Origin: Acidimicrobiales bacterium
GTDB taxonomy: Bacteria; Actinomycetota; Acidimicrobiia; Acidimicrobiales; SHLQ01
Length of the DNA stretch: 64,000 bases
Assembly (NCBI GenBank): GCA_965216815.1
Contig: OZ244202.1
Location: 872,963-936,962 of the forward strand
Direction of reading: 5' to 3'
The notes beneath the pieces are model-generated. The model saw only the letters and a program-made list of their open reading frames with translations. It searched no databases and was not told the origin of the DNA. Below, in pieces: positions 1 to 17,075 of this stretch (position 1 is its first letter; every line of letters begins with the position of its first letter). The translations under genes were made by a program, and so were the position numbers.

Positions 1-345
1 GCCGATTGCGAGCGCTGCAAGCGCGTTCCCCGCCGAACCCAGTAGCGGTTCGGCGGCAGGCTCGATGCCGCCGTCCTCCGCCGGTTTGCCCGAGGACGCG
101 AACGACGTCAGAAGTGCTGCGACCGCGACATAGGTGGGGATCACGGCCCACCAGCGATACAGACCCAGCAATGCGAGCGTCTGGGTGACGCCCGTGACCA
201 CCACCGCGACGCCGAGCAGATCGATCAGCAAGCCGGAAGCGCCCGTCCAGGCAGGCAGGAGCACCCGTCGCAAGCGACGCAACGCGTAGCCGAGAAGACC
301 GAACGTGGCGACGAACGCCACCAGCCCGATCAGGTGACGGACCAT
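1..345 (-). CDS. Membrane protein, N-terminal part (runs off the window edge)
   Basis: ATG at 345 with GAAGG upstream; frame MVRHLIGLVAFVATFGLLGYALRRLRR... stays open to base 1 with several hydrophobic segments; not in the ORF track because there is no stop. Confidence 0.6.
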   Translation of the reverse strand, partial: MVRHLIGLVAFVATFGLLGYALRRLRRVLLPAWTGASGLLIDLLGVAVVVTGVTQTLALLGLYRWWAVIPTYVAVAALLTSFASSGKPAEDGGIEPAAEPLLGSAGNALAALAIG

Positions 346-3819: not shown

Positions 3820-3865
3820 GTGGAGCTGGCGGGAATCGAACCCGCGACCCCCTGCTTGCAAAGCA
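3820..3865 (-). repeat. att site: duplicated 3' part of tRNA-Ala
   Basis: gtggagctggcgggaatcgaacccgcgaccccctgcttgcaaagca, identical to 15425-15470. Confidence 0.97.
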
Positions 3866-3968
3866 CAAAGAACGCGGCTCGCTGACCGGGCGTTTTCCGC
3901 GAAAGCCCCTGTCAGGGGGTGTTTTGGGTTGCCCGTTGGTGCCCGCCCAGCACCGTTGTTTTCTGTTG

Positions 3969-3991
3969 CTACGCGCGCGATACGCGCGCGG
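3969..3991. promoter_or_regulatory. Putative integrase arm-type binding site
   Basis: ctacgcgcgcgatacgcgcgcgg matches 15321-15343 with one mismatch; tandem TACGCGCGC units. Confidence 0.7.
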
Positions 3992-4033: not shown

Positions 4034-4426
4034 TCATTCATCGAGCGGACGAATTCGCTCATCGAGCCACATAGACAGCTCAGCGACGTCGATTTCGCCG
4101 GCTGCTACCGCCCAGATGATCGCGACGGCTTCGTCGGTTTCGGCGGCCAACTCACGGCCGTTGATCGCGCAGAACATCGTCGCCGCTTGCCACGCGAGCC
4201 TCTTGTTGCCATCAGGCAACGGATGATTCCGGGCGATGTGCACAGCGAGGACAGCAACCTTGTCGGTGAAGTCCTCGTAGAACTCGACTTCACCGAATCC
4301 TGCCTGGGGAGCATGCAAGGCCGAGTCCAACAGATCAATCCGCGAAGTGCGCATCAGTGACCGCGCGTCGGTCCTGGTCACTGCGGCGGCAACGACTAGA
4401 GCTTCGGCCAGTGTCAGATACCTCAT
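4034..4426 (-). CDS. Doc/Fic family toxin
   Basis: HPLPDGNKR Fic/Doc motif; MRYLTLAE N-terminus; LDSALHAP. Confidence 0.9.
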   Translation of the reverse strand: MRYLTLAEALVVAAAVTRTDARSLMRTSRIDLLDSALHAPQAGFGEVEFYEDFTDKVAVLAVHIARNHPLPDGNKRLAWQAATMFCAINGRELAAETDEAVAIIWAVAAGEIDVAELSMWLDERIRPLDE

Positions 4427-4635: not shown

Positions 4636-4796
4636 GCCATCACGATACCACGACGGCAAGACGGCGTCTGGTTTCGTCTGGCGTGTCACTCGCCGACTGG
4701 GGTCCCTGGTTGGTTCGAGGGCCCGCTGCGACTCTCGCGGCGTTGTGACGTTGGCTTCTGTCGCGTGAGGGGCGTTTCGGTGTCCCTGGTTGGGGT

Positions 4797-4982
4797 GTGG
4801 GAGATCGACTGCTCAGTGTTGATGAGGTCGCCGAGCTACTCGGCGTTCGTCCTCGCTTCGTCCGCCGGCTCGTCGACGAGCGCCGGATCCGCTTCTGCAA
4901 GATCGGACGGTATGTCCGCTTCGATCCCAGCGATGTCGAGAGCTTCATCGAGTCCGGCCGAGTCGACGAAGTCGTGCGATGA
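4797..4982 (+). CDS. Excisionase-family HTH DNA-binding protein
   Basis: LLSVDEVAELLGV...VRRLV...KIGRYVRF, 61 aa, inside the element. Confidence 0.88.
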   Translation: MGDRLLSVDEVAELLGVRPRFVRRLVDERRIRFCKIGRYVRFDPSDVESFIESGRVDEVVR

Positions 4983-5109
4983 CATCGCCAGCTACCGGCC
5001 ATCTCCCGGAGCCCGTTCCGTTGTCGCGTCTATTGATGACAGACGGGTGCAATGTCCTCCCGGCCCATCTCCCGGCGCTCACCTACCGCTCACAGTCGGG
5101 GGTCGGGAG

Positions 5110-8100
5110 ATGACGGCTCGGGTGACGACGCTCAAGGGGCCCGAGGCGGGCGCCTATTACGTCGAGGCGTTGCCCAGCTACTACCTCCAGTCAGGTGAGC
5201 CGCGGGGTCAGTGGCACGGCCGCGGGGCTACCGAGCTTGGGCTGTCGGGCCAGGTGGAGGATGCGGGGTTTCTGGCGTTGATGGCCGGCGAGCATCCGGA
5301 TGGTTCGGGTGTTGCGCTCGGCCGCGGTTACGGCGAGAGCTCGGTGCGGGGGTTTGATGTGACGTGTTCGGCGCCCAAGTCAGTGTCGATTCTCTTTGCG
5401 GTCGGCGACGCCGAGACGCGTGCGGCTGTGTTGGAGGGTCACGACCGGGCGGTGGCGGCGGTTGTGGAGTGGGTCGAACGGAACGCGTTGACGCGCTACA
5501 CGATCAACGGGGAGGTCGCGGTGGTCGACGCGGAAGGGATCACAGCCGCGACGTTTCGACAGCACACGTCGCGGGCTCTGGACCCGCAGCTCCACACCCA
5601 TGTCGTTGTAGCGAACCGTGTGATGTCGCCGGATGGGCGATGGCTTGCTCTGGATGCCCGGGGCTTGAAGTTGGATCAGCGGACTGTGTCCGCGGTCTAT
5701 CACGCATCGCTGCAGGCGGAGTTGACGCGGCGGCTTGGTGTGGAGTGGGTCGAGACCGAGCACTCGATCGCAGAGATCGGCGGTGTTCCGGTCGAGGCGA
5801 TCACGGCGTTCTCTCAGCGAACCGACTCGATCCGCCGGCGGGTCGATGTGAAGGTCGACCGGTTCATCGACACCATGGACCGTGAGCCGTCACCTCGGGA
5901 GCGGTGGCGGCTCGAACGCGAAGCAGTCATCGACTCCCGACCGGCCAAGACCTCGGCGATGAACGCGGTGGAGCTGCACACGGTGTGGACTGGGCGGCTC
6001 GAAGACGTCGGCGTCACCGCCGGCCGGCTTCGGTGCGACTGCATCGACCGCGAATCTGCCCTACCGCTGTATCCCGATGTCGCCGAGGCCGTGATCGCTG
6101 ACGCTGTGGCGGTGTTGGAGGAGTCGCAGTCGTCGTGGCGGGAAGCGGAGGTGACACGCGAGATCGCCCGCCAGCTACCCACCAACATCGGCCACCACCC
6201 AACCGGACTTCTCGACCTGCTCGAATATCTCACCGCCACGGCTGTCAAGACCCGTTGTGTCGATATCTCGCGGCCGGTCCCGGCAGGTGCGCTCGTGCGG
6301 TCCGATGGCCGCCCGCTGACCGAATCGGTCGCGGATCGGGCACTGACCACCCAGCAGATTCTCGACCAAGAACGAGACGTGTTGGCCTGGGCGCAGCGCC
6401 GACTGGACTACCCAGGCGCGGACAACGCAGAGGTCCACACCGAAACAGCAGCGCGGCTCACCCCGGCCCAGGCCGACGTCGCCGCAGCCGTCGCAGGCAC
6501 CAGCGACCTGGTCCTCGTCGTCGGCCCCGCCGGCACCGGAAAGACTTCCGCGCTCGTGCCTGCGGTGCGCGAGTTGGCGATCGATCGCCGCCACGCCTTC
6601 GGCGTGACACCATCCGCTGCGGCCGCTCAGGTGCTCGAGATCGAAACCGGCATTGCCGCGGACACGTTGGACAAGCTCCTCGTTGAACACGACGGCCGCA
6701 GGCCACCAGGCCGGGCCTACGACCTGCCAGTGGGTGCGACTGTGATTGTGGACGAAGCCGGCATGGTGTCTACCGACCGACTCGCCGCCCTCGCCGCTTT
6801 GTCGGACCGCAAGGGTTGGCGAGTCGCGCTCATTGGCGACCCACTGCAATTCTCCGCTGTCGGTCGCGGGGGCATGTTCGCTCATCTCATCGATGCCCAC
6901 AGTGCGATTGAACTCGACCGAGTCCACCGCTTCACCAACCACTCGGAACGACAAGCCTCCCTACGCCTACGCGTCGGCGATCAAACCATCGCCGACGTCT
7001 ACGACTCCCACGGCCGCATCCATGGCGGCACCGCCACGCGAATGGAAACCGAAGCACTCGAAGCCTGGGCGACAGCCCGCCAACGTGGTGAGAGCGTGTT
7101 GTTGTCGGCGCCGTCGAGCGACACCGTCCAACGTCTCAACACCGCCGCCCAACAACAACGAATCACCTTCGGTGAGATCAACACAGGCAGCCCGACCGTG
7201 GAAACCAGGGACTACCGGATTTTCGTTGGCGACGAGATCGTCACCCGACGCAACGACCGACGGATCCTGACCGACCAAGGCCACATGATCCGCAACCGCG
7301 ACACCTGGACAGTCACCAACATCGACCGTGGCACCATCACCGCCGCCGGCGGATGCGGCGCCGTGAAGCTCCCAGCCTCCTATGTCGCCGAGCATGTCGA
7401 GTTGGCGTACGCGCAGACCAGCCACGCCACCCAAGGCCGAACCGTCGACCGATCCATCCTCGTCCTCGACGGACCCACCGACCTGCGAGGCCTCTACGTG
7501 CCACTCACCCGCGGACGCGAATCCAACGACGCCTACATCGCCACCGTCGGCAACGACACCGCCGTCGACATCTTCCGAGCCTCGATGGCACGAAGCTGGA
7601 TCGACCAACCCGCCCACCAGCGGATGGCAGAACTCGCCGAGTCGGCTGCTCATCGGCCCGGCACCATCCCAACCCCCGACCTACGAGCCCTGTTCGCCGA
7701 AAGCGGCCAAATCACCAACACCTTGCGCGACCTCGACTACCACCTGCCCCGGCTCCCAGATCGCATCCGGAATCAGGAACACGTCGTCGATCGAACCCGC
7801 ACCGAACTCGACCACTGCCACCAAAAGCTCAACGAAGCCAACAACACCCTGGCCCGGCTCGACCGACCAGTGAAACGGTGGCTGCACCGCACCGAAATCC
7901 ACAACGCCGAAAACATCCGCGACCGATACACCGACCAGGCCGCGAAAGCCCAGACGAAGTACGAACAGGCGGCCGAGGAGCTCGCCCGAGACCGCGCCGA
8001 CCTAGCAGCCGCCAACGACCTCCACCAACAGCGGCCCGCGCTCGAACACCGACTCGACACAATCATCCGAACCCTCGACACCGACGCCAACATCCGCACT

Positions 8101-8382
8101 CACGCACTCGGAGCAGAGCCGCCCGAAGCCATCACCCAAACACTCGGGAACCGGCCCGTCGAACCCGACGCCGTAGCAGCGTGGGACCAAGCCGCCGGAC
8201 GACTCGACCAACACCACACCTGCTACAACGCCAACCGCTTCCAACGCTGGGACCTCCCACCCGAGATCAACGCCAGCGCCATCCGGGTCCGCGGATCAAT
8301 CGACACGCTCGCCACCCAACTCGAACCGCGCACCCCGAAACGCCAACTCAGCGACGACAACGCACTCGGCATCAGCATGTGA
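5110..8382 (+). CDS. MobF (TrwC-like) relaxase-helicase
   Basis: AYY...SYY catalytic Tyr, FDVTCSAPKSVS, DPQLHTH His motif, Walker A GPAGTGKT, DEAGM, HATQGRTVD; ATG 5110 after GGGAG. Confidence 0.93.
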   Translation: MTARVTTLKGPEAGAYYVEALPSYYLQSGEPRGQWHGRGATELGLSGQVEDAGFLALMAGEHPDGSGVALGRGYGESSVRGFDVTCSAPKSVSILFAVGDAETRAAVLEGHDRAVAAVVEWVERNALTRYTINGEVAVVDAEGITAATFRQHTSRALDPQLHTHVVVANRVMSPDGRWLALDARGLKLDQRTVSAVYHASLQAELTRRLGVEWVETEHSIAEIGGVPVEAITAFSQRTDSIRRRVDVKVDRFIDTMDREPSPRERWRLEREAVIDSRPAKTSAMNAVELHTVWTGRLEDVGVTAGRLRCDCIDRESALPLYPDVAEAVIADAVAVLEESQSSWREAEVTREIARQLPTNIGHHPTGLLDLLEYLTATAVKTRCVDISRPVPAGALVRSDGRPLTESVADRALTTQQILDQERDVLAWAQRRLDYPGADNAEVHTETAARLTPAQADVAAAVAGTSDLVLVVGPAGTGKTSALVPAVRELAIDRRHAFGVTPSAAAAQVLEIETGIAADTLDKLLVEHDGRRPPGRAYDLPVGATVIVDEAGMVSTDRLAALAALSDRKGWRVALIGDPLQFSAVGRGGMFAHLIDAHSAIELDRVHRFTNHSERQASLRLRVGDQTIADVYDSHGRIHGGTATRMETEALEAWATARQRGESVLLSAPSSDTVQRLNTAAQQQRITFGEINTGSPTVETRDYRIFVGDEIVTRRNDRRILTDQGHMIRNRDTWTVTNIDRGTITAAGGCGAVKLPASYVAEHVELAYAQTSHATQGRTVDRSILVLDGPTDLRGLYVPLTRGRESNDAYIATVGNDTAVDIFRASMARSWIDQPAHQRMAELAESAAHRPGTIPTPDLRALFAESGQITNTLRDLDYHLPRLPDRIRNQEHVVDRTRTELDHCHQKLNEANNTLARLDRPVKRWLHRTEIHNAENIRDRYTDQAAKAQTKYEQAAEELARDRADLAAANDLHQQRPALEHRLDTIIRTLDTDANIRTHALGAEPPEAITQTLGNRPVEPDAVAAWDQAAGRLDQHHTCYNANRFQRWDLPPEINASAIRVRGSIDTLATQLEPRTPKRQLSDDNALGISM

Positions 8383-8812
8383 ACCACTGCGGCCAAGCCC
8401 GCCCCAAGGGGCGGGCCAACTCCAGTATCAACAACCCTCCGTCGTCAAGGGACGGCTCCGGGACGCCGCTCCGCTCCGTGTCCTCACCTCCGACCTACGG
8501 CCGGCCCTTGACCCCTTGTGGGACCGAATACTGCCTGATACGCGGCAGAGGACCGCGGGCGGGCGTCGCCTCCGGTTGTCGTGCTCTGTCAGCCTTCGGA
8601 CCTAGAGGCGTCTTATCTCCAGTCCTGGCTCGGGAACGACCCATCGAACTATTTGCGATCTGCGGCCCTGTCGATTCGCACGGTGATTTCATGTTCAAGA
8701 CAGGCGTGAGTTGGATGTTGAGCTGCTTCCCATCGACCACTCTCGTGGGCAATGCCGTCTGAGGTGCTTCCGGCGGTTTGCTTCACATCGAGGATCGAGC
8801 CGACGGTAGGAT

Positions 8813-9757
8813 CTATCCGAGTGCCTCACAGTGCTCCCGGAATGTGCTGAGCACATCTGGTATTGGCGTGTTGGGCATGGCCGCGCAGCGCTCGACTGGG
8901 TCAGGATTACTGAAATCTGCCGCGCCGACAAAGACCCATTCGTCGTCAGGTCGCTCGAAGCCATAGGCCACGTTCCTAGCAATCCAATCATCATCGTCGA
9001 AGTTGATGAGGCGACGGCGATCACCGCAGATTGACACGAAGTACGGCGGTTGCTCATCACCGAAATGGCTTATCACCGCGTCAGCGATCCCATCGCCAAG
9101 GCATTGCCGGTCGAACTCTTCGAGGCGATCGCTATACGAGTCGAAAGGAAGGATCACAACCCCATCGGGAACATGCCCCTCAATCCTGTCTCCACCATTC
9201 AAAGGGAGCGCTCCAAGCGCCACGATATAGTGCTCGTCGGCAACGTGCCAGAGAGAGGGCCCCGGTGAGTATTTGCAGGCCTCGTATTCACCGCCAGCGC
9301 TTAGAGTCAGCCGAAAGCACTTTCCAACACTTTCGTTTGCTCCTGGGGGCGGAACGCCCCTATTGGGAATGGCAGTTACGGTCAGGTCATCGATGCTGAA
9401 CAACACCTGACCTGGCTCTGTCGACGAGGCGGGCGTTGGAGTGTTCGTTGTCACCGATGTGGCTAGTGTTGTCGTTGAGACTGCTGCGGGCAGGGCGGAG
9501 ACGGATTGTCCTTCTGGGCGACTGTCACCAACTACGGTCGTGTCGCCCGAACTACTGCGCTCGATCAGCAATACTCCGGCCACAACGGCGGCCATTATGC
9601 ATCCAACGGCCACGGAGCGGCGTCTACGCGTCGCCTTCCTCTGGCGAAGGTCGGCCTCTGCGGCCACAGAGGCCCAGGACCTCCGCTGGGTCGTCTCCTG
9701 GCGACTGGGCGGTTCGCTCAGTGATGCTAGGAAGACCCTGAGCTGATCCTCATCCAT
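8813..9757 (-). CDS. Single-pass membrane protein, putative anti-sigma factor
   Basis: Short basic N-terminus, TM helix, Thr/Ser linker, Cys-containing extracellular domain; directly downstream of the ECF sigma gene. Confidence 0.6.
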   Translation of the reverse strand: MDEDQLRVFLASLSEPPSRQETTQRRSWASVAAEADLRQRKATRRRRSVAVGCIMAAVVAGVLLIERSSSGDTTVVGDSRPEGQSVSALPAAVSTTTLATSVTTNTPTPASSTEPGQVLFSIDDLTVTAIPNRGVPPPGANESVGKCFRLTLSAGGEYEACKYSPGPSLWHVADEHYIVALGALPLNGGDRIEGHVPDGVVILPFDSYSDRLEEFDRQCLGDGIADAVISHFGDEQPPYFVSICGDRRRLINFDDDDWIARNVAYGFERPDDEWVFVGAADFSNPDPVERCAAMPNTPIPDVLSTFREHCEALG

Positions 9758-9767
9758 GACTCACCTT

Positions 9768-10274
9768 TCACCGGTCGGTGCTGATTGCTGATAGTCTTTG
9801 TAGCGCTCTGTGAGCGTGTCGCTTCACGCTTCCAGTGGAGATGCCGAGGATGCCGGCTGTCTGATCAACAGAAAGGTCAAGCCAGTATCTCAGGAAGATC
9901 ACCTGCCGTTGTCTGCGAGAGAGCTGTGAGATCTCGTTTACTAGCTCGCTTTCAAATGACTCCAACGGATACCGTATGGGTTGCCTATCCGGTGAAATAG
10001 AGCCAGCATCCGGGCGTCTTCTTGCAGAGTTGAGTCGATTCGCCTTTCGAGCTTCGCCCCGGCACAGATTTGTTATCGTTACGACCAAGTATCCTCGTAG
10101 TTCGTTGTCCGTCAGGTCTTGTGGTGAAGCGAGATACGTTCGAACGAAGGCTTCATGAACGATTGCCTGTGGGCTTCCAGAAGCCCCCGCAAAATGCGCT
10201 GCGAGGCGTTCGAGTTCGGTGAGCTTCGTCCGATATATTCGCTCGTACTGATTCCATTTGTCTGTAGCACACAC
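9768..10274 (-). CDS. ECF RNA polymerase sigma factor (SigE-like)
   Basis: IVHEAFVR...YLVVTITNL region 2 and LSRRQRQVIFLRYWLDLSVDQTAGILGISTGSVK region 4; start uncertain. Confidence 0.85.
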   Translation of the reverse strand: MCATDKWNQYERIYRTKLTELERLAAHFAGASGSPQAIVHEAFVRTYLASPQDLTDNELRGYLVVTITNLCRGEARKANRLNSARRRPDAGSISPDRQPIRYPLESFESELVNEISQLSRRQRQVIFLRYWLDLSVDQTAGILGISTGSVKRHAHRALQRLSAISTDR

Positions 10275-10975
10275 GGTTAAATCAGTCTACTCAGCGGTCT
10301 TGGCCAGCCACGAGCCTTGCATTCCCTGTTCTGGGAGCTATCCGCGCCAAGGAATATTGGGCCCGAGCATAGTTGACGAGCGTCACCTACATCTATACAA
10401 CGCGTAGCCCGGGTTGCAGGTTGACACAAGGCAGGATCTTTCTCGAACCGGCGTGCCACCCCGGCACGAGTACTGCGTTCTCCGCGAGGAGTTCGCTGCC
10501 TGGCGAGTGCTGGCGCGACGTGAGGCGGTTGGCCTGCTCTGACCGGCACCCGCGGCTACAGACTCTGGACGCGCGCCAAGCGACGGTCATCGTGGCCCAA
10601 GTCCCATTGAGGCGCATGAGCACGTTTTCTCGGCGTCGGTGGGGCGTTGTCTTCGCGTCCGATTTCCGCAGCTACCCGGAGTTGCGACGAAGCATGTGCA
10701 CCAGGATGTCATACTCCGAAGGGGAGGACAGTCTGCACCGGGAGCCTCTCCGCGGTAGGAGGTGGAGAGTGCTGCCAGTAACTAGACGGTTGACGGGAGG
10801 GATGCCGCATGCGATAGCAGCGTCGCGGGGTCCGACGCGCATCGCTGACAACGGCTGATGCTCCGCTCCTTCGCAGTCGGCGGATCGAGGCGCTGCGCCA
10901 TTGATCCGCGGCTACCCCTAACGTAGGCTGCGGCTGCGAGTTCGACCAAGCAATCGGCGTCTCCAAGGGCAACCT

Positions 10976-11686
10976 GTGTCAACCTCCCAAGTCACGATAG
11001 ACGGCCGCCGCCTCACGGTTGCCGGCGCTCTGACCGGCCAGTTCTATGGAACTGCGGTGCTTCGACCTGCGGGATCTTCACCGGCACTCTCGCAGGGCCG
11101 ACAGGATCTCAACTACGGCCCTTCCTCGCTTCTGTCCGGTTCAATTCGACGAAATGAACTCCATGTGCGTGACCAAGTAGATCTCGCTATTGGCACAGTT
11201 TCGTTGCTCGAGATTCCTCCGAGCCAGTCTGCGATCGGGAACCTCCCACCTGATTCGCGGGTGGGGATCTTGGAGGGTCAATGGTTTAGCGCCTTCGCCT
11301 TCTTCTATCGGCCGCTCAACCGCCTCTCAGATGTGATCGACCACTTTCTGGCAATCGCGCCGGTTGAACATCCCGACGGGATGGTTGCGTCCGAGGGCTA
11401 CGACGTTGTCGAGCAGGCATACTCAATGGCGCTTGATGCTGGTATGGCCGTATTGACTGAGCCCCAGGGCACGCCATCGGTCTCGTACACGCAAGTACGG
11501 GCTGGCCGCGTGTGGCGCGAGGGTCACCACGTCTACCTCGAGGGGGATGAGGTGCGGCTGATGGTCACTCCCTGGGCTCACCCACAGAGCCGTGACCCCC
11601 TGTCCCATCGCACTCCGTCAAGCGACTCGCTTGACGACGTCTACATGGTACTGAGTTCGATCGAGCGGATGGCTTGGCGTGGCTGA
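10976..11686 (+). CDS. Hypothetical protein, first gene of the cargo operon
   Basis: 236-aa ORF ending 21 nt before the next gene; start uncertain. Confidence 0.6.
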   Translation: MSTSQVTIDGRRLTVAGALTGQFYGTAVLRPAGSSPALSQGRQDLNYGPSSLLSGSIRRNELHVRDQVDLAIGTVSLLEIPPSQSAIGNLPPDSRVGILEGQWFSAFAFFYRPLNRLSDVIDHFLAIAPVEHPDGMVASEGYDVVEQAYSMALDAGMAVLTEPQGTPSVSYTQVRAGRVWREGHHVYLEGDEVRLMVTPWAHPQSRDPLSHRTPSSDSLDDVYMVLSSIERMAWRG

Positions 11687-11707
11687 CCGCACAGGCAGGA
11701 AGGTGAA

Positions 11708-12301
11708 GTGATGTGGATCGCGTTTGGGGTACTTGGGCTGTGGCTACTACTGATCACGTTTGCTCTGATTGGTCACAACACGCGACAAGCCATTCTGCAA
11801 CAACAGGTCCGTGCACTTCGGACGACAAGCATCACTCCGCAGCGTCAATCGGGGTTCGTCGAGGCGACAGAGAACGAGAAGCGCTCCGATCTAGAACCCG
11901 GATCAGCTGTGCTTCTCGTCAGTGAGACGTGCCTTGGATGCAATCAGGCGATTGAATCGGCTCGTCAATACGTACTCGGTGGCAGTCCAGGCAGCTTCTC
12001 CCCACTGTATGTCCTGACACCAAATCCTGGCGACGGTCGCATCGTACGACCACTCGTGAGACTGCACGACGATGAGCTTTACCGATCGATCTATCCGGGA
12101 GCGGCACCAGCGTTGTTCGTAGTTGGTGAGGGAGGTTCGCTGACCTTAGTCCCACAGGGCTCAGAACCCCTCAACGTTCAGGACAGCCTCGACGGTGAAT
12201 TAGGTAGTCAACGGCCGGCGTCCCCGATTCAAGACGTCATCCGCAATGTCGCTTCACAGCCCGGTTCGCTTCCCAACACACAGGAGGACATAGCGAGATG
12301 A
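11708..12301 (+). CDS. Membrane-anchored thioredoxin-like protein (MauD/TlpA-like)
   Basis: N-terminal TM helix, LLVSETCLGC CxxC, AAPALFVV putative cis-Pro loop; RBS AGGAAGG. Confidence 0.7.
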   Translation: MMWIAFGVLGLWLLLITFALIGHNTRQAILQQQVRALRTTSITPQRQSGFVEATENEKRSDLEPGSAVLLVSETCLGCNQAIESARQYVLGGSPGSFSPLYVLTPNPGDGRIVRPLVRLHDDELYRSIYPGAAPALFVVGEGGSLTLVPQGSEPLNVQDSLDGELGSQRPASPIQDVIRNVASQPGSLPNTQEDIAR

Positions 12302-12822
12302 GTGACCACCTGATTCCAACATACTCGCCAACGTCGGGCGAGGCGATGCAGAAACCCAGGCGGAGTTCATCCAGCTCACGACGAGAATTCCTCGCATTGG
12401 CGACGATAGTGCTTGGCGGAATCGGCCTTGCCTTTTCAGATCTACTTACGACAGTGTTCAACCGAGTTGGAGCCTCACCGTGCACAGGCGCCGGGTGTTA
12501 TCAGAAATGGTCTACGTGCCAGAATTTCCATAGCGAAAGTCAGATTTGTTCCCCATCAAATCGGTACATGGGATCCGATCTCTGCCAAGGTAGCTGGCAC
12601 AAGGATCACCAAACAAGCTTCTGGACCAACTCTGGAATAGACTACAAGGCTCACTACGAACACTCATCGGGCGCGTGCGCCGGGCGGAACGCGTGGACCT
12701 GGAGTGAGGGCGGCACTGATACGATCTGTTCTGATGGAAGCAAGGTGCGTTGGCGCAAGGAGGGTGGTCAGTGGGTGGTCGACTATCCGCTCTCGGCCAC
12801 GATTTGCCGGACCTCGTCTTGA
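12298..12822 (+). CDS. Tat-exported Cys/Trp-rich small protein
   Basis: SRREFL twin-arginine motif, hydrophobic stretch, probable VGA|SP cleavage; mature ~115 aa with 8 Cys and 7 Trp; RBS AGGAGG. Confidence 0.8.
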   Translation: MSDHLIPTYSPTSGEAMQKPRRSSSSSRREFLALATIVLGGIGLAFSDLLTTVFNRVGASPCTGAGCYQKWSTCQNFHSESQICSPSNRYMGSDLCQGSWHKDHQTSFWTNSGIDYKAHYEHSSGACAGRNAWTWSEGGTDTICSDGSKVRWRKEGGQWVVDYPLSATICRTSS

Positions 12823-12902
12823 CGGCGGTCTACCCTGCCTCCGACGCTTCGCAGCAAATGGTGAGAGTGCTCGGACTGCCAGACCTTAAGGAGCCCTAGA
12901 TC

Positions 12903-13523
12903 TTGCATAACACTGTTCTGCTGGTGGCTGGACTCGTTGCAGGTGTCTCGCTTAGCAGCTCCCCTTGAAGTATCAATAGTTCAGCTCGACTAGTTAGTCG
13001 CGGACGACGAGTCTACTTCGGACTTGGACTGCTCCTTGGCGCTCTTACAACGGGCCTAGGTCTGTGTGCCCTTGGAGTGTTCGTCCTTCGACTTGGAGTT
13101 GATGCAGGCATCTTTGCAGTTGTCATCGTGGCCGGGCTAGGCATCGTGTCGTTCACCCGCTTCAGCGGGCGGGGGTGGTACCCACAGCGCCGACGGCAAA
13201 CGCCAAGCTGGATCACGGAAACGCACACTTCTGGTTTCGCCTATTTCGGATTCGAGATGGGTACGGGCCTACGCACATACTCACCCACGATGTTGCCGCA
13301 CTCGCTCGGCGCGATGATCCTAGCGAGCGCACGCTTGTGGCCCGCAGTGCTGGGTGCCGCCGGCTTCGCTTTGGGAAGATACGCGAGTCGGGGGGTCTTC
13401 TTACTCGGCACAGCTGATGGTGGGGTGCAGCGAGATTATCGGTTCCCCCGATACATTGAAGCAGGCCTAGTAGTCGCCAGTATGGTAGCAATCATTGTTT
13501 CGGGCTCAGTGATTGAGTCATGA
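12903..13523 (+). CDS. MauF/CcdA-like membrane protein with an in-frame UGA (12966-12968); candidate Sec/Cys recoding
   Basis: TAAGGAG 9 nt before TTG 12903; reads MHNTVLLVAGLVAGVSLSSSP*SINSSARL..., continuing in frame into ORF 13077-13523 (GFEMGTGLRTYSPT). Confidence 0.7.
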
Positions 13524-14119
13524 TTCATCCCAGAGACCTTACCTCGATGAGGATTGCTAGTCGTAGATATGGGCTTCAACCAGCTGATCGGCTCGACATC
13601 ATGGCCCGCAAGATGGCCGATGAACAAGCTTCGGTTAGACGCTTCTATGCGTCCGATGAGGAGATCAGGACAAGCGACGTCTACGACTACCTGTCCAAGT
13701 GCAGCCTTGTGCTTGCGGTGACGACAAGACGCGGTGACTTGGCGGGGGGAATCTACGTAACAAGCCGAAATACGTATACGCGACAGTGCTTTCTGTCGGT
13801 GTATGCGTTTCGTGAATATCGCAATCAACGGCTCTTCTTTGAGAGTGTCATTCTTGGCATCGACCTGCTGTTCACATCTCTTCCTCTGCAGCGCGTCCGC
13901 TTTGATGTTGCCGAATACAATCTGCACCAGTTCGCCAGCATACGACGGTTTCCGGGCGTAGATCTAGAAGGAGTTCGCAAGGATTGGAGTTTTGTCGGTG
14001 GCCAGTATTGGGACTGTCATCTGTTCTCAATCAGCGAGCTTGGGTGGAGTCGGCGGGGTGCCCATCTGGCGACGCGGCTAGCGACAAGCCGTGGTCGCTT
14101 GGTCGAGGGTCCGGAATGA
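13520..14119 (+). CDS. GNAT acetyltransferase (RimJ/RimL-like)
   Basis: LQRVRFDVAEYN...LEGVRKDWSFVGGQYWD; ATGA overlap with the upstream gene. Confidence 0.75.
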   Translation: MIHPRDLTSMRIASRRYGLQPADRLDIMARKMADEQASVRRFYASDEEIRTSDVYDYLSKCSLVLAVTTRRGDLAGGIYVTSRNTYTRQCFLSVYAFREYRNQRLFFESVILGIDLLFTSLPLQRVRFDVAEYNLHQFASIRRFPGVDLEGVRKDWSFVGGQYWDCHLFSISELGWSRRGAHLATRLATSRGRLVEGPE

Positions 14120-14165
14120 CGTCCAACGGTGGCGTGTCCAGCCGAGGTGCGCCAGCTTCGCGTTC

Positions 14166-15296
14166 TCAATCTGCCTCGCCGCGGGCAGCGGGCGAACTCC
14201 GCAGGAGTTCGTTGACTCCGGCGGCGATCTCCGTATCGCGTTCGGCTACAGCGTGTTGATAGCGGAGCGCGGCGTCGGGTGAAGCGTGACCGAGTCGCGC
14301 CATCGCCTCCTTCGTCGTCGCACCGGCGGCGGCGTTGAGGGTGCCGGCGACGTGGCGCAGATCGTGGAACGTACAGTCGACGTTGGCTTCGGCGCGGGCT
14401 TTGTTCCAAGCGCGGCGCCACACGGTCTTGGTCGGCGTGTCCCCAGAATGAGCGGCCGTGAACACCAACGCATCGGCGTCGTCGGCAACAAACTCGTCGA
14501 GATGCGCCTCCAGTTCGGTGACGAGAACGCCAGGGAGCACGACACGACGGACACCGGCGGTGGTCTTGGGTGGCTGGAAGATCAGCCCATCGGCGTTCGT
14601 TTCGACCCTCGATCGCTCGACCGACACCATCGGTGAAGCATCATCGAGGCGCAGATGCCGCCGTGCAAGTCCGAAACACTCGCCTCGGCGCAGCCCTGCC
14701 AACGCGGCGGTCAACACCATGGCGCGATATCGCGGCTCGATCACATCGGCCAACCGCGAAACATCTTCTAGCGATGGGATCTGCCGCTCAGCGCTGCGCT
14801 CCATCGCGGCTCCCTTGATCCGGCAAGGATTCTCCCGGATCAATCGGTCGTCCACCGCTGCCTGCATGATCTGACGCAACAACCGGTATGCCTTCGCCGC
14901 CGTCGTGTCACTGATCGACCCGGCTCTGATCTTCGAGTTCCATCGCCGAACCGACGCGGTGCTGATCCTGACGACAAGTACATCACCGAACGTTGGGAGC
15001 ACATGCGACTCGAGCAGATAGGCGTAGAGCTCTCTGGTCGCCGGGCGAAGCTCGGTCTTCGCTTCCAGCCACGACCGGGCGTACTCACCGAAACCAACCG
15101 AACGACCCACCGGATCCAGATCGTCGCCCCGGTGCAGGTCGGCCTCGACCGTCGCCAACCAGCGAGTCGCATCAGCCTTGCTCGTAAACGTCGTCGGGCC
15201 AGTCACCCGCTGCCTCGAAATCGGGTGCGTGTAGAGGCCCTGCCAGCGGCCCGATCGCAGCTGCCGCACACTCCCAAACGTCCGTCGGCCACCCAT
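14166..15296 (-). CDS. Tyrosine recombinase/integrase
   Basis: GLRRGE, PKT, FHDLRH, RLGH, ALRYQH catalytic residues; N-terminal FGSVRQLRSGRWQ arm-binding domain. Confidence 0.95.
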   Translation of the reverse strand: MGGRRTFGSVRQLRSGRWQGLYTHPISRQRVTGPTTFTSKADATRWLATVEADLHRGDDLDPVGRSVGFGEYARSWLEAKTELRPATRELYAYLLESHVLPTFGDVLVVRISTASVRRWNSKIRAGSISDTTAAKAYRLLRQIMQAAVDDRLIRENPCRIKGAAMERSAERQIPSLEDVSRLADVIEPRYRAMVLTAALAGLRRGECFGLARRHLRLDDASPMVSVERSRVETNADGLIFQPPKTTAGVRRVVLPGVLVTELEAHLDEFVADDADALVFTAAHSGDTPTKTVWRRAWNKARAEANVDCTFHDLRHVAGTLNAAAGATTKEAMARLGHASPDAALRYQHAVAERDTEIAAGVNELLRSSPAARGEAD

Positions 15297-15320
15297 CGAG
15301 TCGACCGTACGGCATCGTTT

Positions 15321-15343
15321 CTACGCGCGCAATACGCGCGCGG
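15321..15343. promoter_or_regulatory. Putative integrase arm-type binding site
   Basis: ctacgcgcgcaatacgcgcgcgg, counterpart of 3969-3991. Confidence 0.7.
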
Positions 15344-15425
15344 CGATAGATCGACGGCCGAAAACGGTCAAGACCGCAGGCCATTGACCCGCGGTCTCGA
15401 CTGCAATTGCAGTGATATCTGTTCG

Positions 15426-15499
15426 TGGAGCTGGCGGGAATCGAACCCGCGACCCCCTGCTTGCAAAGCAGGTGCTCTAGCCAACTGAGCTACAGCCCC
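15426..15499 (-). tRNA. tRNA-Ala (anticodon TGC)
   Basis: GGGGCTGTAGCTCAGTTGG...CCTGC-TTTGCAA-GCAGG...GGTTCGATTCC...AGCTCCA cloverleaf. Confidence 0.97.
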
Positions 15500-15547
15500 G
15501 AACGTCGGCTCACAGATTACAGGTATGGCGTCCACTCCAGGAGCGGT

Positions 15548-16429
15548 TCAGCGACAGCGCCCGATTCGGGCTATGACCGTCAGCGGAGAGCTTTCCGAAG
15601 GATCAGACTCCCAAACACCCACGACGCTGGAAACTGCAAATCTGTAGCGTCCGTTTCCTGCATTGATCTCGTGACTGTAGGCGGTCTGGTCGCCTGGCGT
15701 GGTCGCGATCTCCTGGTAGTTCGTGCCCCCTCCGGGGGGATCTACAAGCACCCTGTAGTTGGTTGCGGCCGGAATCGGATCCCAGGACAGATCGATGACG
15801 ACGCTGCCTGGTGACGCAGCGCCACAAGTCGCTTTGATTCCTGTCGGCGCAGCTACTGCTGACGTGGAGATGCTCGACTGGGCAACCGTGGTCGGGCGAG
15901 TCCATGCGCCCGAGGTAGTGGTGAACGTCGCGAACGCGACGGTGCCGACTAGCACTGCAACACCGGCTGCGGGTCTGGAGCGGACCGCAGTGGCAACGAT
16001 GGAAAGCAGCCCGATCGCCACGAGAATCGTCGTCGTCCCCCACAGCACCGGCATGCCGATGAACGGCACGACCAGCCGAGCGCGCCCGATGATGCGATCC
16101 TCACCGAGGCTGCCTGAGTCGTCGACCTTGTTGGCGTCTCCGCGCGTCTTCAGGGCACCTTCCTCAGTGGCTCCGACAACGCGGTGCACCACGGTGTCGT
16201 CGCCCGCTGTGAACGCGATGATGTCGCCCTCACCGACCGGGCTTCCCCGATCGATCAGAACGACATCGCCTGCTCGGAGGCTTGGACTCATCGAACCCGA
16301 GCTGATGACCGAAGGCTGCCACCCCGTGATGAGTGTGGGTACTGCCACCCACAGCGCCATCGCGAGGATCCAGCAACCGACGACCCAGGCGCAGAAGCGG
16401 CCTATCTCCTCGAGTCTCCAGCCACGCAT
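15548..16429 (-). CDS. SipW-type (S26B) signal peptidase with C-terminal FN3-like extension
   Basis: SGSMSP, VVHRVV, TRGDAN, DD motifs (Ser-His type); extra TMs and a beta-rich C-terminal domain. Confidence 0.85.
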   Translation of the reverse strand: MRGWRLEEIGRFCAWVVGCWILAMALWVAVPTLITGWQPSVISSGSMSPSLRAGDVVLIDRGSPVGEGDIIAFTAGDDTVVHRVVGATEEGALKTRGDANKVDDSGSLGEDRIIGRARLVVPFIGMPVLWGTTTILVAIGLLSIVATAVRSRPAAGVAVLVGTVAFATFTTTSGAWTRPTTVAQSSISTSAVAAPTGIKATCGAASPGSVVIDLSWDPIPAATNYRVLVDPPGGGTNYQEIATTPGDQTAYSHEINAGNGRYRFAVSSVVGVWESDPSESSPLTVIARIGRCR

Positions 16430-16448
16430 GGCATTTGTCCTAGGCAGG

Positions 16449-17075
16449 TCAGGACTGGACTTCCCACACGAATGCGAGATCGGTCACGCTCGAGTCCTGC
16501 ACAGCGTCGGTCGCCGTCGCCGGCAGTTCGACCTTGATGCGGTAGACCCTCGACTCCGGGGTTGCGCTGGGATTCCAGTTGCCGAGGCCGGTCGCATAGT
16601 CGGTTGCTGCGGCGTCGAACCCGCTCAGGACATCGTTGTAGAGCCTGCGCTGACGGTCGAAGCCGGTGCAGTCGGTGAAGTCGCCACCTGATGTGGCGCT
16701 GCCCTGGTCGATCGTGACCAGAAGCTCGTCGCCGAGCGTTCCGGAATCGGTGTAGCCACCCGAATACATCTTGACCAGGTCGGGATCGGCGATCGAACCC
16801 TGGTATGTGACCTTGATGCAGCGAGTAACCGAATCGCCGGGTGCCATGTCAGTCACGGCGAAGGCGGCGACGCCGCTGTCATCGTCGGCTAGCTCAACGT
16901 TGCCGGTTGCAACCGAGTTGCCGGAGTTGTCGGTCGTGTCGGTGAACGCTGCCCGTGACGTGCTCAAGACCGCAACGCCCGAAAGGACGAAGGCGATGAT
17001 CACTGCGTAGGCCACGGGGATGCGCCGCCGTTTGACCGAATGTTGTGGTTCGTAACGCTTGAGTGGGTGAGTCAT
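16449..17075 (-). CDS. TasA/CalY-like SipW-dependent secreted protein
   Basis: Signal peptide ending TSRAAFTDT, then N-x-V-A-T-G-N-V-E-L and MAPGDS; adjacent to the sipW-like gene. Confidence 0.8.
   Translation of the reverse strand: MTHPLKRYEPQHSVKRRRIPVAYAVIIAFVLSGVAVLSTSRAAFTDTTDNSGNSVATGNVELADDDSGVAAFAVTDMAPGDSVTRCIKVTYQGSIADPDLVKMYSGGYTDSGTLGDELLVTIDQGSATSGGDFTDCTGFDRQRRLYNDVLSGFDAAATDYATGLGNWNPSATPESRVYRIKVELPATATDAVQDSSVTDLAFVWEVQS

Follow-up and report, generated by a model that had tools for sequence, protein, structure and literature searches.

In the 64,000-nucleotide (nt) stretch of an Acidimicrobiales bacterium genome analyzed here (contig OZ244202.1, positions 872,963 to 936,962; hereafter the window), five genes at 10976-14119 encode, among others, a membrane protein (M) that appears from its sequence to belong to a new and widespread selenoprotein family of the MauF type, lying within a conserved four-gene module. 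We think it probable that this module is a thiol/selenol maturation system of the kind that accompanies methylamine utilization (mau) genes, serving a new exported Cys-rich protein (T) and not a methylamine dehydrogenase. The observations on which this reading is built are the order and conservation of the genes, the homology of M to MauF and of a thioredoxin-fold protein (X) to MauD, the conservation of an in-frame UGA codon in M, a covarying hairpin after that codon, and the presence of selenocysteine (Sec; U in peptide motifs) machinery. The parts of the cluster, with U and G as the remaining two genes, are:

10976..11686, plus strand: U, 236 amino acids (aa), no Cys, no signal peptide seen, no known family
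11708..12301, plus strand: X, membrane-anchored MauD-like thioredoxin-fold protein, 197 aa, CLGC, hydrophobic N-terminus
12298..12822, plus strand: T, twin-arginine translocation (Tat) signal protein, 174 aa, SRREFL twin-arginine signal, 8 Cys, 7 Trp
12903..13523, plus strand: M, membrane protein of the MauF family, 206 codons with read-through of one in-frame TGA
12966-12968, plus strand: in-frame TGA, candidate Sec codon, residue 22 of M
12987..13000, plus strand: small hairpin CGACU-AGUU-AGUCG, a weak candidate selenocysteine insertion sequence, 22-35 nt past the U of the UGA
13520..14119, plus strand: G, GNAT-like (Acetyltransf_3) protein, 199 aa, PF13302 at 17.2 bits against a cutoff of 25.4

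A preliminary description of this region had reported five closely spaced genes with two ATGA overlaps and a T protein with 8 Cys and 7 Trp, and these points agree with the list of open reading frames (ORFs) and the sequence: five plus-strand ORFs (U, X, T, the tail of M, and G) were found where it had placed them, with overlaps GAGATGAGTG at 12295 and GTCATGATTC at 13517. Searches of the five proteins against Pfam and NCBIfam returned almost nothing, with T matching Tat-signal models only and G falling below the GNAT threshold. The mechanical ORF listing of M (148 aa, from GTG 13077) captures just the end of a longer frame of 206 codons, which opens at TTG 12903, ten bases past an AAGGAG, and is in frame with GTG 13077. 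This frame meets TGA 21 codons after the TTG, and reading through it gives a polytopic protein of 206 residues; no start codon occurs in the window for 37 codons past the TGA. In the AlphaFold2 model of M (predicted local distance difference test (pLDDT) 82.4, predicted template modeling score 0.81), the helices are broken at the Sec and at an invariant EMGTGxRT stretch, the latter forming the break in transmembrane helix 4 (TM4). Residue 22 is the only invariant Cys/Sec column of the family, and the invariant polar residues within the membrane comprise S20, U22, N25, S26, E118, T121, R124 and T125; the window M keeps all 18 family-invariant residues. In the 80-nt gap between T and M (12823-12902), there is no counterpart of the N-terminal helix that most relatives of M encode right after T, and a TAG at 12897 closes the frame there, which may reflect a deletion in this lineage.

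The TGA is conserved well beyond the window. A pattern scan with one genome per species yielded 16 loci, comprising 14 from Streptosporangiaceae, one from Marinactinospora and one weak locus from Nonomuraea (L019) in which no M was found; by tblastn, 14 of the 16 displayed the order U, gap, T, M, sigma. The tblastn alignments of M continue without a break across a stop where the window has its TGA, and a TGA occupies the homologous codon in all 14 of the Streptosporangiaceae loci. Scanning metagenomes with the M alignment yielded 132 relatives, 80 of which were kept (L008 and L015 were dropped from one alignment as near-duplicates). By motif search, [SA]GS-x-TGA-[ST]-x-NS is present in 88 of 96 related loci, and every one of the 88 in which the site is represented keeps its TGA; among the loci without it, one has no M and six have an M match starting at or near the first bases of the contig, and the motif was not found in L080 and L111. 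No Cys codon was seen at the TGA site among the related loci or close subfamilies. Peptide conservation extends to either side of the UGA ([SA]GS-x-U-[ST]-x-NS), with Ser codons alternating between UCN and AGY. Since the TGA sits at one codon in 88 loci of many genera, flanked by a conserved peptide, it is very unlikely to be a chance or degenerative stop.

The RNA that follows the codon is also conserved, as evidenced by two hairpins held in common after the UGA by 38 distinct sequences of the main subfamily. The second of these (+30..46, loop GGUCU) is paired in 99.1% of cells, its 31:45 pair occurring as UG (18), GC (10) and UA (10), and the covariation score of the whole structure was 0.210 vs. 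0.114 in shuffles, a value that none of 500 shuffles attained. We take the GGUCU loop to resemble the GGUC-type loop of the E. coli fdhF element; an Rfam search around the TGA gave nothing relevant. A GC-rich hairpin at about +30..46 with GU in its loop was likewise seen in the host selD and in two other M paralogues of the host. The host genome (97.2% complete) encodes a tRNA-SeC (ARAGORN) together with selA (375.7 bits), selB (266.1 bits) and selD (381.2 bits), all above NCBIfam cutoffs; selA and selB are about 20 kb from the tRNA-Sec, and none of the sel genes directly adjoins it. The host selD (C1:1660377-1661297) has an in-frame TGA of its own, in the context HGAG-U-GCK, and is thus itself a selenoprotein. 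In addition, selA was found in 10 of 10 other carrier genomes tested and in 34 of 41 relatives of the host, the latter count implying that the use of Sec is nothing unusual in this lineage and has no discriminating value there. Four Streptosporangiaceae loci have a tRNA-SeC some 2 kb past the cluster, and in Nonomuraea ferruginea (L004) selA/selB-like ORFs, recognized by eye, adjoin it within about 2-5 kb of the cluster. The tRNA-SeC positions are 9239-9332 in L004, about 9100-9380 in L011, L014 and L015, and 878-973 in L019. Taken from sequence, the conservation of the TGA, the covarying hairpin and the Sec machinery strongly support reading the TGA of M as Sec, and with it the selenol half of the thiol/selenol relay that had been proposed for this cluster.

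M does not travel alone. Iterative ORF searches over 97 loci recovered T in 75, X in 64 and U in 50, and where enough sequence is available 5' of M, X lies upstream in 51/51, T directly upstream in 60/65 and U upstream in 34/35, so that the homologues do co-occur and U-X-T-M is a conserved module. Two of the five loci without T upstream of M have the order X-M-U-T, with T downstream; in the other three no T was found. Genes of the MauE family occur in 34 of the 97 loci (5 of 6 tested pass the Pfam cutoff), lying 3' of M throughout the 14 Streptosporangiaceae loci and, in many others (those that bear a GNAT gene among them), between U and X. A GNAT gene follows M in 9 of the 64 loci with room for it, and for this reason it lies outside the core, as an accessory that belongs to one subfamily. 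The GNAT assignment is weak for the window protein, which stays below the PF13302 cutoff; of the homologues tested, 4 of 7 pass it, with scores of up to 36.6 bits.

Profile matches to M were found in 26 of 41 relatives, the host included. In the 41 relatives T gave a strong match in the host genome only, plus two weak ones. A second cluster on the host chromosome (C1:2454160-2458067; L112 4160-8067) reads U-MauE-X-T-M-G, with a MauE-like gene at 22.3 bits (below cutoff), an X with CTSC, an M with TGA and a GNAT at 36.6 bits; the EMGTGxRT stretch of its M reads LMGTGLFT, without the Glu and Arg that are invariant elsewhere. The third host paralogue is a MauF-like X-M pair (C1:601877-602512; L113 about 6854-7540, also L114 and L115) with the motif STWSP-TGA-GES, a MauD-like CxxC gene 5' of M, no U or T, and, some 2.8 kb upstream, a MauE gene (58.4 bits); comparable matches are present in 21 of 24 genomes of the host's family. 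The M of this pair, carrying STWSP-U-G, matches MauF directly (E 1e-4) and groups with MauF in a quick tree. Against plasmids, tblastn of M gave one Nonomuraea record, and tblastn of the MauE protein gave no match.

Because one UniRef name among the database matches of M read 'MauF', we compared the cluster with the mau cluster of Paracoccus denitrificans (NC_008688, 216737-220072; order mauR, F, B, E, D, A, amicyanin, J, G). In hhalign profile comparisons, M matched P. denitrificans MauF at 97.3% (E 2.3e-11, 170 columns), with its UGA column aligned on the Cys of MauF STWSPCG (STWSPCGYSS), and X matched MauD at 97.2% (E 4.2e-11) over 159 columns spanning the anchor, the CxxC and the cis-Pro region. 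The X profile also matched DsbE/TlpA-type structures (MPT53 1lu4, E 6.5e-5; DsbF, E 5.4e-4), with C75, C78, P134 and G143 invariant in 27 sequences. The likeness to mau that had been drawn as an analogy is therefore real homology, given these two matches and the MauE-family genes of related clusters. M shares with MauF a Cys or Sec at the same site, X is homologous to MauD over its full length, related clusters carry MauE-family genes as mau does (the window copy has none), and a Cys-rich twin-arginine protein directly follows the MauD-like gene, as mauA follows mauD. The two systems differ as evidenced by: 1) Sec in M vs. Cys in MauF; 2) a T protein that is unrelated to MauA outside the signal peptide; 3) no MauB-, MauG- or MauJ-like gene, amicyanin not having been searched for; and 4) the extra conserved protein U. 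Model searches bear out the absence of MauB, MauG and MauE from the cluster and of MauA motifs from T: for MauE there was no PF07291 match in the region and no jackhmmer match in window positions 8001-16000, and in the host genome the MauA model PF02975 gave no match, the MauB model PF06433 reached at best E 0.59 (10 bits) and the MauG model PF03150 gave no match at E <= 0.01. Without MauA, MauB or MauG matches, the genome gives no indication of an amine dehydrogenase completed elsewhere.

The pairing of CcdA/DsbD with ResA/TlpA offers a second comparison, being likewise a small polytopic membrane protein with a redox residue at a mid-membrane helix break and an anchored thioredoxin-fold partner. 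CcdA uses two Cys, in TM1 and TM4. M differs in having one Sec and no Cys at its TM4 break and in lacking any significant sequence or fold match to these proteins: PF02683 matched 1 of 46 M members (E 0.014), and CcdA (5vkv), at rank 2 of the Foldseek list, was not significant (E 0.67), nothing in that list reaching E <= 0.001. Fold comparison (VIA) placed NqrE (Z 6.9), RnfA (Z 6.5) and a third RnfA/E-type match (Z 5.8) highest, all below the tool's meaningful level for helical proteins.

The T protein is new as far as our searches reach. Of 1.84 billion proteins scanned with HMMER, 32 representative homologues reached E <= 0.001 (a word-based search found nothing), and the family alignment, comprising T and 28 homologues after P0016, P0018, P0023 and P0024 were omitted for odd length, shows a twin-arginine leader, six near-invariant Cys residues (C74, C84, C96, C127, C144, C170), H101 and the motifs C-x-GRNAW-x-W and CSDG. 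About 115 residues of the mature part are conserved, with residues 105-173 predicted to be mostly beta-sheet. Pfam and NCBIfam gave Tat-signal matches only, PF02975 matching 0 of 29 family members; a profile search of PDB sequences matched only the signal region (best E 0.15), and hhalign against MauA (32%) aligned the signal peptide only. Fold searches with T gave nothing at E <= 0.001 in Foldseek on pdb and a best Z of 3.8 in the wide VIA search, with MauA in neither list. For U, there was no Pfam or NCBIfam match, nor a Pfam match among 10 homologues, and ESM Atlas returned unnamed actinobacterial clusters only (best score 0.86). MauJ and MauB were tried as identities for U and rejected (hhalign 0.2% each).

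The preliminary description had also cast U as a partner subunit or chaperone of T. The predicted U-T complex scored 0.58 (runs 0.58, 0.64, 0.58) vs. 0.02 for the best control, with a partner pLDDT of at least 57 and a contact agreement of at least 65%, a pass at a level that, on the calibration of the predictor, is more often wrong than right unless the pair is likely beforehand. The conserved adjacency of the genes makes the pair somewhat likely, and the prediction lends weak support to U as a candidate partner or chaperone of T.

From these data, we infer a direction of electron flow, a role for T as substrate and the binding of U to T. T would be exported via Tat, possibly with U as a co-exported partner or as a cytoplasmic chaperone, and outside the membrane X would exchange disulfides with T, processing its six conserved Cys residues. 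Where present, MauE, as a DsbB-like disulfide generator, would supply oxidizing power from quinone; the window copy, having no MauE, would rely on a MauE gene elsewhere in the genome. We surmise that the single selenol of M, at the TM1 helix break in the middle of the membrane, would exchange with X through a selenylsulfide, with M serving as the arm that reduces, for proof-reading, or else as a redox link independent of MauE. The module arrived in this host on an 11.6 kb integrative, mobilizable element in a tRNA-Ala gene.

Part of this scheme has a published parallel in that MauE can replace DsbB, with MauD treated as a DsbA-like partner (bioRxiv 10.64898/2026.03.05.709764). A general disulfide-forming pair of MauE and a thioredoxin-fold partner outside methylamine metabolism fits MauE and X here, but the constant pair in our loci is X and M and not X and MauE, and a search of that text turned up neither MauF nor selenium. 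The Streptomyces candidates of decRiPPter (PMC7794033), in which mauE/mauD adjoin a gene whose product has at least 8 Cys, the genomes carrying no other mau genes, are a further likeness, with no selenoprotein or MauF-like gene mentioned in the portion of the paper at hand.

Several observations weigh against the maturation reading. The hairpin of the window is short (5 bp, loop AGUU), lies 8 nt nearer the UGA than those of the host selD and the two M paralogues (M2, M3), and does not surpass shuffles when folded over 70 nt (z -0.21). The window M also lacks the extra N-terminal helix found in most relatives and sits on a very long branch (4.03 in a quick tree of 75 of 78 rows, identical sequences having been dropped), so it could be a decaying copy; with its weak hairpin, no N-terminal helix, no MauE and a long branch, the window copy may be less fit than its relatives. 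M offers one redox residue where CcdA-type relays have two. Tat export more often marks proteins that are loaded with a cofactor in the cytoplasm. The U-T prediction is weak, and the co-occurrence of T is inflated in that T itself led to 15 of the loci counted. Finally, the insertion of Sec into M is deduced from nucleotide sequence.

Some of these points feed the view that the TGA is an ordinary stop, M in the window being a pseudogene or a short upstream ORF followed by a separate 148-aa gene with no need for selenium; the weak window hairpin, the long branch and the fact that public gene callers start M past the TGA are in its favor. It is nonetheless very improbable in our estimation, given a TGA fixed at one codon across 88 loci of many genera, amid a conserved peptide and with no start for 37 codons, Sec machinery in all carrier genomes tested, and a MauF that has Cys at the TGA position. 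The invariant polar residues of M in the membrane could instead point to a metal or selenium/sulfur transporter or carrier, with T a metalloprotein or cofactor protein that U helps to assemble in the cytoplasm and that leaves folded through Tat; the Tat signal of T and its predicted binding by U, itself signal-less, would fit such a route. M has weak Pfam matches to SfLAP and DsbD_TM, which we take to belong to one transporter clan, and its best fold matches are NqrE and RnfA/E. NqrE and RnfA/E carry intramembrane Fe-S ligands. These fold matches are, however, below the meaningful level, no metal-binding family was found for T or U, and the homology to MauF together with the pairing with a MauD-like CxxC protein in 51/51 loci speaks for thiol chemistry; we regard transport as unlikely.

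The view that T is a secreted toxin, bacteriocin or ribosomally made, post-translationally modified peptide (RiPP)-like product, with the GNAT as immunity or tailoring enzyme and the redox genes serving only to fold the product, draws on the mobile setting of the cluster, on the translational coupling of the GNAT gene to M and on the decRiPPter candidates, whose precursors have at least 8 Cys. We hold it to be quite unlikely, as the mature part of T, about 115 conserved residues of mostly predicted beta-sheet, is not a short core peptide, the GNAT accompanies only 9 of 64 loci, and a second chromosomal cluster in the host together with sigma genes in 13 loci suggest a housekeeping or envelope role. 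T might also be a very distant MauA-type quinoprotein light chain with a Trp- or Cys-derived quinone, its dehydrogenase partner being U or encoded elsewhere. The nearest ESM Atlas cluster to T scored 0.96 and has PF02975 in 11% of its members, the twin-arginine leader of T is of the same kind as that of MauA, the C-x-GRNAW-x-W motif is conserved, and MauF/D/E-like helpers are present; against this stand the failure of PF02975 on all T members and in the genome, the hhalign match confined to the signal peptide, the lack of MauB or MauG in the genome and a U unlike MauB or MauJ, and we give this possibility hardly any credence.

Returning to the maturation system that we prefer, the M family seems to have been passed over in public records. 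Among 123 homologues of M found at E <= 1e-5 in a large protein collection, the 120 listed (P0034-P0153) are 120-231 residues long; all those listed with an NCBI or JGI name are 'hypothetical', the stray UniRef names being MauF, MAPEG and urease accessory protein. All eight records examined begin a few residues past the UGA (e.g. MLSSPVWR..., MNSAAVLLPP...). M is without a Pfam or NCBIfam model of its own, its Pfam matches over 46 members being few, weak and scattered. We know of no mechanism assigned to MauF. No paper on a MauF-type selenoprotein was found in the literature searched. A 2026 review (PMC13188914) tabulates 119 prokaryotic selenoprotein families, and its table, so far as accessible, has no entry for a MauF-like or SGSxU membrane protein and none of the domain identifiers among the weak matches of M. 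Membrane selenoproteins named there (SaoP permease, YeeE/YedE, MerT-like, SO_0444 transporter) also place Sec in an integral membrane protein, but they belong to other families, with motifs GUxSG, UxC and C/SxxU. Methods based on Cys/Sec pairs, as described in the available part of PMC12013277, would miss a branch without close Cys forms.

We tentatively extend this into a conjecture that may well prove wrong: MauF-type proteins would be intramembrane thiol/selenol oxidoreductases, a large branch of which in soil Actinomycetota appears to be obligately Sec-containing and was missed by Cys/Sec-pair screens and gene callers as its records start past the UGA; with a MauD-like thioredoxin and usually MauE, this branch would mature a new class of Tat-exported Cys-rich proteins that leave the cell bound to the signal-less U. 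If true, a widespread membrane selenoprotein family would be added to the bacterial selenoproteome, its public records starting past the UGA. A residue present as Cys in one branch and as Sec in another would almost certainly be catalytic, giving a handle on MauF. MauF, MauE and MauD would then form a reusable maturation kit beyond methylamine dehydrogenase, able to travel on small mobile elements into Sec-competent hosts.

As to its setting, the cluster is carried on an 11.6 kb integrated, mobilizable element in tRNA-Ala, with integrase, attachment (att) repeats and relaxase present:

3820..3865, strand not assigned: left att repeat, a copy of the tRNA-Ala 3' part, 46 nt, 100% identical to 15425-15470
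4034..4426, minus strand: Fic/DOC family gene on the element (PF02661, E 1.2e-9)
4765..8382, plus strand: TrwC-type relaxase with helicase domain (PF08751, E 1.9e-77 over residues 129-414; AAA_30, E 1.8e-46), its true start probably further downstream
8813..9757, minus strand: ORF for a 314-aa protein 3' of the sigma gene, no Pfam family, candidate anti-sigma factor
9768..10274, minus strand: extracytoplasmic function (ECF)-type sigma factor, divergent from the cluster (Sigma70_r4_2, E 1.1e-15; Sigma70_ECF, E 1.5e-5)
14166..15296, minus strand: tyrosine integrase of the element (PF00589, E 3.9e-11)
15425..15499, minus strand: tRNA-Ala (tgc), its 3' 46 nt being the right att repeat (ARAGORN and direct repeat)

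The 'mobile' label given to the cluster beforehand is upheld by the 46-nt repeat at tRNA-Ala, the tyrosine integrase, the TrwC relaxase and the lower GC content of the cargo, at 0.573 for the five genes, 0.616 for the element and 0.659 for the rest of the window. Apart from the window, 13 loci have ECF sigma genes alongside the cluster, and in the Streptosporangiaceae loci sigma genes lie 3' of it as well. The ORFs of 293 and 208 aa just outside the element, at 15548-17075 on the minus strand, do not belong to the finding. A 27-nt direct repeat (3965-3991 and 15317-15343, 93% identical), GC-rich and palindrome-like (CGCGCG...CGCGCG), lies just within either end of the element and may be an arm site of the integrase.

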